Assembly: GCA_048939015.1 (NCBI GenBank)
Contig: JBHLPW010000101.1
Location: forward strand, 1 to 11,253
Direction: 5' to 3'
Source: Promethearchaeota archaeon
GTDB lineage: Archaea; Asgardarchaeota; Lokiarchaeia; Sigyniarchaeales; SOKP01
DNA: 11,253 nt
Part shown: positions 6,369 to 10,205 of the stretch, in pieces
How positions within the stretch are numbered: the first letter of the stretch is position 1
Layout of the letters: every line of letters starts with the position of its first letter
Position numbers and translations under genes: made by a program
Notes under the pieces: model-generated
What the model was told of the DNA's origin: nothing
The model's database searches: none
What the model saw: the letters and a program-made list of their open reading frames with translations, nothing else

Positions 6369-9300
6369 ATGGCAAGAATAACACAGGAAGAAGATTTATT
6401 AGAAAAGGTAGTAGTGGAAGAAAACAGCTATAATTGGAAAGAAGCGGCTAGACTATATGAACAAATTGCTCAATCTTATTTAGAAAAAGAAGATAAGAAA
6501 AAAGCTGCTGAATTTTACTATAAATCGGGTTCATCATTTCAAGATGCTGTATATTCATCTAAAAATACGGGGGAATTAGAAGAACATTCTAGTAATATAC
6601 TTAGAACCCTGATAAAAGCCACTAATATTTATAAAAATATAGATAACTTATCTGATGAATTAGAATGTAAAGGAATGGTATCATTGACAAATGCAGTATA
6701 TTTTATGAAATCCAAGCAAGAAATAATGAGTTCAGCTAGAGAATCTGTAGAAACTCTTAATAGAGCTATTGAACTTCATGATAAAGATAACCCAAATAAA
6801 AATAATCTAGCCAGAAAATTGTATAATTATTCATTAGCTACAGCTTTCTTAGTATATTATATTAATGATGTCCGAAAGGTAAATGAGACCTTACAAAAAG
6901 GTTTTGATTTTGCATATAAAGCATGGAATATATCAAAGGAAATTAAAAATTTTAGAATGTTAGCGGATTCATTAAACATGGAAGCTTTTTTATGGTTCTT
7001 CCTGGTTGGAGTAATAGATTTTAAGAAAGATAACAGCTGGAAAGAAAGTTTAAAAAACTTCCTTCTTAGATGTGATGAAAGTCAAAAAATAATAGGAGAG
7101 TGTAAAAATTCTCAAATTCTTAGCTCGTTATATTTTGCTAGTGGTTCAGCCTATATAAATTTTGGTTTTCATTATATCGAAGACGAAGTGGAGCAGAGAA
7201 AATATTTTGATAAATGTATAAAACTTTTTGAGAAAAGCGTAAAATATGTAAGAAATACCGGAAATAATTTCATTCTAATTGAAGGTTTGTATTATATTAA
7301 CTATGTAGCTCTATTTGCTGGGAGAATAAATTACTTACAAAAAAGAATTAGTAAAGATATTGATGAAATCATTAAAAAAGGGATTGTATTTAAGAATACA
7401 AATTTGCCAACATATATCGTCGCAAATTATTTACCTGCACTTTATTATTCGAATGTTTCGCAGTGGAGCTTTTTTACCGCAACCTATAGGAAATCTTATG
7501 CTAAGAAAGGTATTGAGTATGCTGAAAAAGCTTTAGAACATTCATTATGCGATGTTTGGGATTGTACATCACATCAGGCAGCATCTTGGTCATATTCACA
7601 ATTAATAATTTTAACAACCGTAAAAGAAGAACGTCAAAAATTTATAGAGAAAATGATAAAACATGCCAGTCGAGCTAAAGAAATTGCTGAAAAGTTTAAA
7701 GGTGGCATACTTCAAGCAGTGGGTTTTTCTTCTATATATCGAACCTATAGAACATTGGCAGATATTGCTGACAATAAGCAAGAAAAAATCAAGATGCTGA
7801 CTATTGCTATTGATGCCAGTAACAACTATGTAGAACATGCAATGGAGTCCCGAACGGGTAATATATCGGCTAGATTACGATTAGGGCTTTTATATGAAGA
7901 AATAGGAATTTTAACATTAGATAATGATAAACTCAATCAAGCTAAAGAATTATTTGATAAAGTGATTGATGAATGCATTAATAGAAGATATTATTCGTAT
8001 GCTGCTGCTGCCTGCGAATATTGTGCCCGGATTGAAGACAGATTGGGCAATTATCCTGTATCATCAGACTATTACAAAAGAGCTAAGAATGCTTATTCAG
8101 ATTCTCTGAAAAATGTCGATTATAAACTACTTAAAAATAGAATTAATGAAAAATTAAATTATGTGGATGCTTGGACGTTTATAGAAAATGCAAGAGCGTC
8201 TCATAAAAAAGAGAATCATGTTAGCGCTAAGGAAAACTATGAAAGAGCTATTGAAATTTTGAAGGATCTACCAAATTTTAAGTTTGAATCTAATTATTAT
8301 TCTGCTTGGGCGGAACAGGAAGAGGCTGAAAGACTCAGCAAACTTGAGAAACATAAGGAAGCTACGGAACAGTATGAAAAAACCAAAATTGTGTTTGATG
8401 ATTCAATAAAAGCCATGGACGATGCGTTTAATAAGACTAAAGATAAATTCACATTAGAAAGGATTAAAAAACTTGAAAAAGTAGCTCGGTTACGAATCAA
8501 ATATTGCTCAGCGAGATCAAACGTAGAAAAAGCGAGAATTTTAGGAAAACAAGGTGAATATTGTGCTGCTGCTGAATTGTTTGCTTCTGCTGCATCTGAA
8601 TTTAGAGACGTGTGCAATCTATTTAAGATTAAACGAGAACGAGGAGAACTCGAGGCAGTTTATTATCTTTGTAGAGCATGGGAAAGTATGGAGCTTGCTG
8701 AAAAATATTCTGAGCCAGAAAGATTTGCAGAGGCCTCAAATTTGTTTATGAAAGCGAGTAGTCTTTTTAATGATAGTAAATTAAAATTACTTGCATCTGG
8801 TAATTCAGCATTCTGTCAAGCATTAGAATTTGGATGCGAATTTGATGAAACTTTTGAATATAATTTAAAAGCTGAATTGTATCCAAAAATAAGGTCGATA
8901 TTAAGAAAGGCAGCCTCCTCTTATGAAAAGGGAGGCTTTGAAAACGGAAGTAATTGGGCTCTAGCAACTGCAACTTATTTCGATGCTGCTTGGTCCTTGA
9001 TTAAAGCGGATGAAGAATTAGAATTTGAAGAAAGGAAAAAACTGTTGGGAATTGGATCTGATTATTTGAAATCAGCAGCAGAACTTTTTAGTAAAGCTGG
9101 TTATAACGATAAAGAAAGAGAAATATTAAAACGTTTAGACATGGTTGAGAAGGAAGAAAAAATAATTTTTTCAGCTTTAAATTCAATTGAAAAACCAAAC
9201 ATATCAGGAAGTACTGTTGGAATTATTGCTCCTGCCTGTTCTTTAGAAACAAGCCAATCCCCTAGATTAGGAGAAGTTGCTCAATTTACTCAGGGAGAAA

Positions 9301-10205
9301 GAAGAGTCATTGTAGAACGATCTGTCAAGAAAAATTATGAGATAATCTATAGAGATTTGTTTAAAGAATATCCAAGAGCTCAAAAGAGAGAATTTAGGGT
9401 CGGAATTGCCCAAATTGGGTTATCGAAATCAGGTAATATAATGGGGGAATTCTATGATATAACACCATCTGGTCTTTTACGTCTTAAAAAGGATAAAGTT
9501 AGAAATGTCCTAAATAATGTTAGAAAAATGGTCAAAAGTGCGAATAAAGAAGGTATTAAAGTTTTACTTTTCCCAGAAATGTCCATTGACCTTAATCATG
9601 GCGAATTTCTTGAAGAGATTTCAGATCTTGCTAAGATGTATGAAATGTATATAATTCCCGGCTCTTTTCATAAGCAAGAAACAAGACAAAATGTTGCAAT
9701 GGTTTTTGGACCTGATGGAATCCTTTGGGAGCAAGAAAAGCATATTCCTGCTATAATACAATATGGTGGGCAAAAATTTAAAGAAAATATAGAAGTTGGA
9801 AATATTCCTCGAAAAATAATTGTTTGTAATACAGAATTTGGGAGAATTGCAATTGTTATTTGCCGTGATTTTCTCGATATGGATTTGCGAGTAGAATTGA
9901 AAAATTTTGAACCCCCTATTGATCTTATTTTAAATCCTGCGTTTACTCCTGTAACTGCTGATTTTAAAGCAATACACTTCGATGCACGCAGATCTATTTA
10001 TGCATACTCCTTTTTTGCTAATGTGGCTGATTTCGGAGATTCCTTAATATATACTCCAGAAAAAGATCGTACAGAAAGAATTATTCCTGCTAAACAGGAA
10101 GGTTTAATATATAAAAATGTAGATCTCTTTAAATTGCGTTCAGAACGGAAAAAATGGGAGAAAGAGCAAAAGAAAGATTTACAATTTATACAAAGCACAA
10201 GATAA
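6369..10205 (+). CDS. Large TPR/SNAP-like alpha-solenoid protein fused to a C-terminal carbon-nitrogen hydrolase (nitrilase superfamily) domain
   Basis: aa 1 to about 940 are Ala/Tyr-patterned helical repeats (e.g. WKEAARLYEQIAQSY, AAELFASAASEF, FAEASNLFMKASSLF). aa about 1009-1265 contain FRVGIAQ, LLFPEMS (E1070), YIIPGS, N-x-A-x-VFGPDG, QEKH (K1124), FGRIAIVICRD (C1165), DLILNPAF, FANVADFGDSLIYTP and EGLIYKNVDLFKLR, the full nitrilase-fold motif order. Confidence 0.9.
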   Translation: MARITQEEDLLEKVVVEENSYNWKEAARLYEQIAQSYLEKEDKKKAAEFYYKSGSSFQDAVYSSKNTGELEEHSSNILRTLIKATNIYKNIDNLSDELECKGMVSLTNAVYFMKSKQEIMSSARESVETLNRAIELHDKDNPNKNNLARKLYNYSLATAFLVYYINDVRKVNETLQKGFDFAYKAWNISKEIKNFRMLADSLNMEAFLWFFLVGVIDFKKDNSWKESLKNFLLRCDESQKIIGECKNSQILSSLYFASGSAYINFGFHYIEDEVEQRKYFDKCIKLFEKSVKYVRNTGNNFILIEGLYYINYVALFAGRINYLQKRISKDIDEIIKKGIVFKNTNLPTYIVANYLPALYYSNVSQWSFFTATYRKSYAKKGIEYAEKALEHSLCDVWDCTSHQAASWSYSQLIILTTVKEERQKFIEKMIKHASRAKEIAEKFKGGILQAVGFSSIYRTYRTLADIADNKQEKIKMLTIAIDASNNYVEHAMESRTGNISARLRLGLLYEEIGILTLDNDKLNQAKELFDKVIDECINRRYYSYAAAACEYCARIEDRLGNYPVSSDYYKRAKNAYSDSLKNVDYKLLKNRINEKLNYVDAWTFIENARASHKKENHVSAKENYERAIEILKDLPNFKFESNYYSAWAEQEEAERLSKLEKHKEATEQYEKTKIVFDDSIKAMDDAFNKTKDKFTLERIKKLEKVARLRIKYCSARSNVEKARILGKQGEYCAAAELFASAASEFRDVCNLFKIKRERGELEAVYYLCRAWESMELAEKYSEPERFAEASNLFMKASSLFNDSKLKLLASGNSAFCQALEFGCEFDETFEYNLKAELYPKIRSILRKAASSYEKGGFENGSNWALATATYFDAAWSLIKADEELEFEERKKLLGIGSDYLKSAAELFSKAGYNDKEREILKRLDMVEKEEKIIFSALNSIEKPNISGSTVGIIAPACSLETSQSPRLGEVAQFTQGERRVIVERSVKKNYEIIYRDLFKEYPRAQKREFRVGIAQIGLSKSGNIMGEFYDITPSGLLRLKKDKVRNVLNNVRKMVKSANKEGIKVLLFPEMSIDLNHGEFLEEISDLAKMYEMYIIPGSFHKQETRQNVAMVFGPDGILWEQEKHIPAIIQYGGQKFKENIEVGNIPRKIIVCNTEFGRIAIVICRDFLDMDLRVELKNFEPPIDLILNPAFTPVTADFKAIHFDARRSIYAYSFFANVADFGDSLIYTPEKDRTERIIPAKQEGLIYKNVDLFKLRSERKKWEKEQKKDLQFIQSTR

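Follow-up and report, generated by a model that had tools for sequence, protein, structure and literature searches.

What is the function of a single archaeal gene that joins some 940 residues of helical repeats to a nitrilase? The question is raised by P0001, a solenoid-nitrilase gene at 6369..10205 (+, stop codon included) on a contig (C15) of a 4.86-Mb metagenome-assembled genome (guanine-plus-cytosine (GC) content ~30%) from an Asgard archaeon of Lokiarchaeia type. The window analyzed here is the whole of that 11,253-bp contig. Asgard archaea are the nearest prokaryotic kin of eukaryotes known so far, and to our knowledge their immune repertoire is known almost only through homology to bacterial systems. 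From architecture and comparative sequence signals, we consider it probable that P0001 is a cytosolic, single-polypeptide sensor-effector of the biological-conflict type, most likely antiviral.

A sequence-only reading of this DNA had placed one open reading frame (ORF) at 6369-10205(+), and the frame is indeed open throughout, encoding 1278 amino acids without interruption. The same reading described about 940 residues of helical repeats. An AlphaFold2 model of residues 1-970, run on a 34-sequence alignment, agrees: it has 37 helices over residues 5-934 and zero strands (mean predicted local distance difference test score (pLDDT) 85, predicted template-modeling score 0.73). Residues 5-934 are thus modeled as a TPR-like, all-helical superhelix. 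Pfam TPR_12 reaches 21.8 bits on P0001, under its threshold of 30.1, and the matches to RasGEF and SNAP are likewise sub-threshold and were put down to helical-repeat noise. The N-terminal solenoid has zero matches among PDB sequences. Its closest predicted-structure clusters are TPR-SIR2 and TPR-CHAT proteins, with template-modeling (TM) scores <0.5.

Foldseek also relates the solenoid to eukaryotic TPR scaffolds, namely Ctr9, Ski3 and TTC7 (E-values of 1e-10 to 1e-6, 37 helices paired), and to subunits of the APC. This likeness is one point in favor of the main rival to the sensor-effector reading, a housekeeping or regulatory scaffold enzyme. In that case, the solenoid would bring in protein clients, with the nitrilase as the amidase or deacylase that modifies proteins (an Nta1-like deamidase of N-termini or side chains, for instance), maybe tied to the adjacent genes for a ubiquitin-like protein and a methyltransferase. 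We regard this alternative as unlikely; the scaffold matches themselves are at TM scores of 0.2-0.35 only.

Between the solenoid and the enzyme lies a conserved Ser/Pro segment (residues 940-970, 9186..9278, +). The Ser/Pro-rich stretch proper covers residues 942-969, within which P943, G951, P955 and E960 are invariant and S948, A954, S964, P965 and E969 nearly so. Residues 933-970 have no structure in the AlphaFold2 model (pLDDT 28-36), which lends no support to the idea that the segment plugs the inside of the solenoid. The sequence-only reading had recognized this stretch and called it a linker; the stretch is there, but it is neither a free linker nor a mere spacer, because it is conserved and is kept alongside the solenoid in family members that carry a TIR or a Metallophos domain at the C-terminus. 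By this sequence evidence, the segment belongs to the solenoid or sensor module. The module boundary falls near residue 985, where the Ser/Pro segment goes with the solenoid and the strand YEIIYRDL goes with the nitrilase.

Is the enzymatic end a genuine nitrilase? Counting the N-terminal strand, the module occupies residues 985-1278 (9321..10202, +). CN_hydrolase (PF00795) matches residues 1047-1167 with 27.5 bits (E-value 2.4e-6), above the gathering cut-off of 23.2, and scores 30.4 bits in the genome-wide search. The AlphaFold2 model of residues 940-1278 has a mean pLDDT of 63, with a core at 70-93 and poor regions at 940-985 and 1192-1239. Foldseek matches this model to mouse Nit2, the Pyrococcus PH0642 amidase, beta-ureidopropionase and carbamoylases (E-values of 7e-10 to 1e-6, probability 1.0), and the model has the alpha-beta-beta-alpha sandwich fold, with TM scores of only 0.4-0.6 because parts of it are poor. 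The above-threshold profile score and the matches to solved nitrilases uphold the earlier call of a complete nitrilase-fold domain.

The earlier call of an intact Glu-Lys-Cys triad also stands and is extended by a fourth residue. By alignment with the solved nitrilases 1j31 and 2w1v, the catalytic residues are Glu1070 (FPEM; codon 9576..9578, +), Lys1124 (QEKH; 9738..9740, +), Glu1139 (KFKE; 9783..9785, +) and the nucleophile Cys1165 (ICRD; 9861..9863, +). Glu1139 is the tetrad's second Glu, its counterpart in the mouse Nit2 alignment being the Glu of FQE. All four residues are invariant across 114 full-length homologues. Judged by sequence, P0001 carries an intact catalytic tetrad, and hydrolysis of carbon-nitrogen bonds is predicted.

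Which kind of nitrilase is it? Residues 985-1278 match the PADLOC models RTasNitrilase (PDLC03804), CARF_nitrilase (PDLC01989) and RT_UG5-nitrilase (PDLC03780) at 50, 44 and 41 bits, respectively, and Drt1a at 14.5 bits. The three nitrilases of ordinary type from the P0001 genome served as a control: against Pfam they reach 151, 95 and 80 bits, against these defense models 0, 11 and 0. In an exhaustive HMMER search of 1.8 billion representative proteins, the next relatives (E-values of 1e-18 to 1e-10) are nitrilases fused to HEAT, LRR or nSTAND3/PUA domains. Also in this tier are proteins of ~600 residues with E-values of 1e-8 to 1e-44 to the nitrilase models of DRT, UG5 and CARF. Given the defense-profile scores and the next-tier relatives, the P0001 nitrilase sits, at the level of profile comparison, in a conflict-associated branch of the superfamily. 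This grouping with defense-type and not metabolic nitrilases speaks against a housekeeping scaffold enzyme, and we found no match of the protein to a characterized housekeeping family, in keeping with the sequence-only reading.

A search of 5.8 billion clustered proteins, in which 681 of the 8000 candidates scored were matches and 120 were listed, shows how widespread the fusion is. There are at least 681 homologue clusters, and the matches listed are mostly 1265-1295 amino acids long, collinear and 51-87% identical. Named sources among them are Loki-, Thor-, Odin-, Hod- and Hermod-archaeota, and the sole type of annotation is ‘carbon-nitrogen hydrolase family protein’. Far from being rare, such fusions form a large multigene family spread across Asgard archaea, P0001 included.

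These homologues also bear on the most trivial explanation, that P0001 is an artefact or a dead gene, either a chimeric assembly of a TPR array and a nitrilase or a pseudoenzyme. The unusual architecture might suggest this, as might the modest rise in GC along the gene from 0.28 to 0.36. However, the family has more than 680 homologue clusters, nearly all of the listed matches are of the expected length, and they derive from several assembly sources (NCBI, JGI, ENA and Logan). The genome itself has five further copies, the catalytic tetrad is invariant, and purifying selection is strong. A false join at about nucleotides 9200-9400, named as a risk in the sequence-only reading, is ruled out because hundreds of collinear homologues occur in independent assemblies and because further copies occur in the same genome. 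We assign the artefact a negligible probability and treat it as already refuted.

A profile of the C-terminal 339 residues found the family in 56 of 201 Asgard genomes, with one to nine matches per genome. Presence is patchy when tallied by taxonomic family (for example, 20/40, 12/43, 15/19, 7/10 and 0/21 genomes), and single genera include both presence and absence. Tandem arrays of up to five genes are common among the 56 genomes. The five further matches in the genome of P0001 are full-length copies on contigs C112 and C117, an 876-residue form on C125, an 823-residue form on C54, and an ORF directly downstream in the window. The last, a second tandem paralogue at 10292..11251 (+), starts 86 nucleotides after copy 1 (P0001) and runs off the end of the contig. 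It shares 29% identity with copy 1 and 67% with the fourth gene of a five-gene array in a congener, a member that ends in a nitrilase. Copy 1 in the window thus directly precedes the equivalent of the congener's copy 4, and array content differs between congeners. Occurrence in 56 of 201 genomes, with presence and absence inside single genera, and a copy number of one to nine with tandem diversification all count against a housekeeping role, which strong conservation across Asgard classes would favor.

Is the nitrilase a fixed part of the architecture? Several matches to the C-terminal profile covered only its first ~50 positions, which correspond to the Ser/Pro segment, and the proteins concerned have the same solenoid with other ends. 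TIR-ended sisters comprise proteins of 1097 and 1120 residues and a 5'-truncated ORF of 989 residues (TIR_2, E-values of 4e-13 to 4e-15), and a sister of 1307 residues ends in a calcineurin-like phosphoesterase (E-value 7e-11). The four lie at L019:2288-6208, L020:1441-4800, L021:2-3292(-) and L022:3-2969 (phosphoesterase in one, TIR in three). 9m0n is the solved TIR-TPR protein nearest to the TIR domain of the sister variants, in which the Glu of the S..W/V..E motif is retained. Exchange of the enzymatic end for a TIR or a phosphoesterase is a further argument against a dedicated scaffold enzyme.

The sensor side is exchanged as well. In the HMMER search, close relatives of the nitrilase (E-value <1e-100) also occur behind TPR_12/MalT-type TPR arrays, behind NosD-type beta-helix repeats (proteins of 1616 and 1800 residues), together with an AAA_16 ATPase and an alpha/beta hydrolase, and behind an N-terminus of P-loop/Arf-like type in which the counterpart of solenoid residues 702-940 is preserved.

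An example of the last arrangement is the 876-residue short form in the genome of P0001 (L004:874-3501). Here, an N-terminal region of ~310 residues with a P-loop and a weak Arf/Roc-like GTPase match (E-value 1.4e-4) replaces solenoid residues 1-700; what corresponds to residues 702-940 persists, as does the nitrilase, with 59% identity. Judging from its sequence, it is possibly a GTPase-switched version of the same effector.

How the protein diverges along its length was examined in seven full-length paralogues, four from the congener's tandem array and three, including P0001, from its own genome. Identity is 22-38% over residues 1-400, about 41-70% over residues 401-940, about 50% over residues 1001-1150, and 80-94% over residues 1151-1278. 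The first of these regions is the hypervariable N-terminal solenoid (6369..7568, +), which is modeled with pLDDT >88 and which we propose to be the ligand-sensing region. The second is the conserved part of the solenoid (7569..9188, +), of which residues 702-940 are the portion also kept in the P-loop short form.

Gene conversion could in principle leave near-identical C-termini. It is ruled out here, as third codon positions are as diverged in this region as in the others: where the residue is conserved, identity at these positions is mostly 0.54-0.67 throughout the gene, rising to 0.74 in residues 1151-1278 for two pairs that involve one copy from genome G192. The mostly flat third-position identity indicates that purifying selection, not recent gene conversion, explains the near-identical C-termini.

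Syntenic orthologues reveal the same gradient. In these pairs, identity is 58% and 39% over residues 1-400 and 68-84% over the remainder of the protein; the flanking genes for TauE, the ubiquitin-like protein, the methyltransferase and the ACT protein are 70-88% identical. The N-terminal ~400 residues diverge two to three times faster than the flanking genes. Since both the flanking genes and the rest of the protein are more conserved, the front of the solenoid is the fast-evolving part.

GC along the P0001 gene runs parallel to this conservation gradient, with ~0.28 in the 5' part, which is variable, and 0.33-0.36 over the 3' half. Upstream of copy 1, the region 6251..6332 (+) includes a TATA-like TTATAAATAAA and a 19-nucleotide element, GGGCAAATTAAATAGATCC, at 6314-6332. 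The congener's array has an almost exact match to this region 5' of its copies 1 and 2, although the N-terminal coding parts share only ~33% identity. The element GGGCAAATTAAATAGATCC was not found 5' of the remaining family copies and loci that were fetched.

The nearly invariant block of residues 1169-1210 (9873..9998, +) lies right after the nucleophile. A homodimer prediction for residues 979-1278 scored 0.59 compared with 0.00 for the best of three controls, a result that may reflect likeness only because nitrilase dimers have already been solved. Among reference proteins, 20 of 30 solved as same-chain pairs reached the mark that it passed, as did 1 of 23 solved as single chains. Across the prediction runs, contact agreement was ≥46% and partner pLDDT ≥87, and the confident contacts fall on residues 1169-1179 and 1197-1210. 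The predicted two-fold dimer interface may explain why this block is so strongly conserved. The protein ends in an invariant tail, FIQSTR (10185..10202, +), which, by analogy with DRT1, may serve as an active-site lid.

How might such a protein work? The TPR-like superhelix, chiefly its fast-evolving first ~400 residues, would recognize a macromolecular trigger, and the conserved rear of the solenoid and the Ser/Pro segment would couple recognition to the nitrilase. Assembly into a dimer or higher oligomer through the invariant 1169-1210 interface could then switch the enzyme on, with the C-terminal tail possibly closing the active site. The active nitrilase would hydrolyze a carbon-nitrogen bond in a probably essential small molecule or in a protein amide. 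The sequence-only reading had proposed that the solenoid binds a target and gates the enzyme. The architecture and the solenoid-plus-effector logic gain support from the exchange of effectors and of sensors, the tandem diversified paralogues, the hypervariable N-terminus, the patchy distribution and the similarity to defense nitrilases. Ligand binding, oligomerization-gated activation, the substrate and the immune role are what we infer beyond this.

Taken further, the sensor-effector reading would make these proteins innate immune receptors that are specific to Asgard archaea and free of any nucleoside triphosphatase (NTPase). The hypervariable superhelix would bind viral proteins and drive assembly of the nitrilase through a near-identical interface that lets different receptors co-assemble. 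The nitrilase would then destroy an essential amide-bearing metabolite, resulting in abortive infection, and the sisters would use TIR or phosphoesterase ends likewise. We put this detailed scenario forward tentatively and consider it rather unlikely.

Several observations weigh against a sensor-effector in antiviral conflict. The rear solenoid and nitrilase are unusually conserved for immune genes, at 50-87% full-length identity across Asgard classes. P0001 is without an NTPase switch to turn binding into activation, and its genomic site is stable, syntenic and mostly housekeeping, not a recognizable defense island. No partner gene is common across four contexts from other genomes, outside one Loki lineage, and no homologue was found on viral contigs. 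The tie to DRT nitrilases is at the profile level only, short of a demonstrated sister relationship, and a profile search of PDB sequences gave only metabolic nitrilases, with DRT1 not among the matches. For the nitrilase monomer, model quality is only moderate (pLDDT 63) and drops to poor in residues 1192-1239.

The genomic neighborhood also lends the housekeeping alternative support. Three loci, those of the window, the congener and a Loki homologue of 60% identity, share what precedes the gene or array, namely genes for an acyl-CoA dehydrogenase, an ACT protein, TauE, a 76-residue ubiquitin-like protein and a 367-residue S-adenosylmethionine (SAM) methyltransferase, and the stability and synteny of this site in Lokiarchaeia would suit a scaffold enzyme. 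The number of solenoid-nitrilase copies at the shared site varies, from one in one genome to at least two in the window and five in the congener. Outside this setting the neighbors change. In three contexts beyond the Loki lineage (one labeled Thorarchaeota, two metagenome contigs) they are unrelated metabolic genes, with an occasional TnpB, MNT/HepT pair or HEPN gene. Conserved operon partners across Asgard classes were not seen in the four contexts from other genomes, and the lack of shared neighbors beyond the Loki lineage indicates that the solenoid-nitrilase unit acts as a single gene. No defense island was seen at the loci inspected, where a systematic enrichment survey was not made.

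Could the methyltransferase be a dedicated partner? It is encoded at 5095-6198 (+) and has a ~180-residue N-terminal extension and a Pfam pattern like that of small-molecule O-methyltransferases. Its orthologues adjoin solenoid genes in seven or more genomes and in at least three arrangements, which favors a scaffold enzyme, and one orthologue (45% identical) is convergent to the phosphoesterase variant in another genus. However, the methyltransferase was detected in 10 of the 46 genomes of the solenoid-nitrilase family and was not found in the family-carrying genomes G008, G129, G147, G180 and G071, and the methyltransferase near a distant homologue is unrelated to that of the window. An obligatory partnership is ruled out by this distribution; a looser, accessory partnership within Lokiarchaeia is possible. 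The 76-residue ORF labeled ubiquitin-like (4859-5089, +) lies between the TauE and methyltransferase genes, and it occupies the same position, at 78% identity, in the 60%-related Loki contig.

Two further genes of the window have no Pfam match. A Lys/Glu-rich protein of 135 residues with CxxC...CxxC motifs is encoded at 3418-3825(-), and its position is kept in the syntenic Loki contig (134 residues). A multi-pass membrane protein of 238 residues is encoded at 1809-2525(+).

If recognition is the function, must the target be viral? The arrays could instead serve kin or partner discrimination or stress signaling, in a signaling or cell-cell conflict module whose enzymatic ends (nitrilase, TIR and phosphoesterase) produce or break down a small signal molecule. 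TIR domains and phosphoesterases are classic nucleotide-signal enzymes, and arrays of diversified receptors are expected of recognition systems. Against this stand the absence from P0001 of a signal peptide, of a transmembrane segment above chance and of a secretion-associated domain in Pfam searches and a sequence scan, and the lack of a conserved downstream reader gene near nitrilase forms in the four contexts from other genomes. On balance, we consider such a module very unlikely.

Is the family new? We found no description of an Asgard TPR-nitrilase in full-text literature on Asgard archaea and nitrilases, and in the text of one 2026 survey of the Asgard defensome the terms nitrilase and TPR are both absent. 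Fusions of a repeat sensor with a swappable effector are already known, as is the nitrilase as a defense effector; it is the Asgard family itself for which full-text searches returned no published description. Should these proteins prove to be immune receptors, they would constitute a major lineage-specific arm of Asgard defense and an instance of repeat-sensor/effector logic that needs no STAND ATPase. They would also provide a second, independent setting in which to find the substrate of defense nitrilases, a question left by work on DRT1. The naturally swapped ends (nitrilase, TIR and phosphoesterase) on one scaffold offer a ready-made experimental comparison.

So, does P0001 belong to a known system? 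The closest parallel is with DRT1 (UG1) and UG5, defense reverse transcriptases of UG/Abi class 3, which consist of a reverse transcriptase, alpha-helical repeats and a C-terminal nitrilase (PMC13275509, PMC13436386). Like P0001, these are single polypeptides of ~1200 residues with helical repeats before a nitrilase of the same profile-defined subtype, and with conservation at the very C-terminus. The effector of DRT1 is its nitrilase, which requires oligomerization and whose active site is closed by the conserved C-terminal tail of the neighboring protomer (PMC13275509). Class 3 UG/Abi reverse transcriptases bear either a nitrilase or a phosphohydrolase (PMC13275509), so that exchange of the nitrilase for a phosphohydrolase-type domain is seen in the two families alike. 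However, P0001 is without a reverse transcriptase domain and the DNA-adduct mechanism: no reverse transcriptase Pfam match was found in P0001 or its window neighbors, and residues 5-934 are modeled entirely as helical hairpins. Its sensor is a 940-residue TPR-like superhelix, its family is Asgard-only among the matches listed, and it forms tandem arrays.

STAND/NLR-like antiviral ATPases such as Avs and bacterial NACHT proteins, whose effectors are N- or C-terminal, share with P0001 a repeat-array sensor, a swappable effector, and a single-gene, patchy and diversified occurrence. CN-hydrolase is among the listed domains of bacterial NACHT proteins (bioRxiv 10.1101/2022.07.19.500537), and the fusions of distant relatives of the P0001 nitrilase to nSTAND3 and AAA_16 recall STAND proteins. 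Unlike them, P0001 is without a P-loop or NTPase domain, as no Walker A motif is present and no NTPase match was found in Pfam or PADLOC, so that the oligomerization switch that defines STAND proteins is missing.

TPR-CHAT, TPR-SIR2 and TIR-TPR proteins of bacteria (for the last, PDB 9m0n) resemble P0001 in joining a long TPR array directly to an enzymatic effector. P0001 differs in its nitrilase effector (Pfam gave no CHAT domain match), in the conserved Ser/Pro segment between the modules, and in a solenoid whose likeness to theirs is weak in structure (TM score <0.5), with no sequence similarity. Metabolic nitrilases, such as Nit2 (2w1v), PH0642 (1j31/6ypa) and beta-ureidopropionase (2vhh), share the alpha-beta-beta-alpha fold and the Glu-Lys-Glu-Cys tetrad, and a two-fold dimer like theirs is predicted for P0001. 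They are only 12-19% identical to it, and P0001 scores 27 bits with Pfam compared with 80-151 for the metabolic nitrilases of its own genome. It is further set apart by a 980-residue N-terminal module and by a distinctive invariant block at residues 1166-1230 with the C-terminal tail. Because it has no NTPase, reverse transcriptase or CHAT domain, P0001 falls outside the STAND, class 3 reverse transcriptase and TPR-CHAT families. As far as sequence comparison goes, it belongs to none of these systems and resembles STAND/Avs proteins, TPR-CHAT-type receptors and the DRT1 effector in logic.

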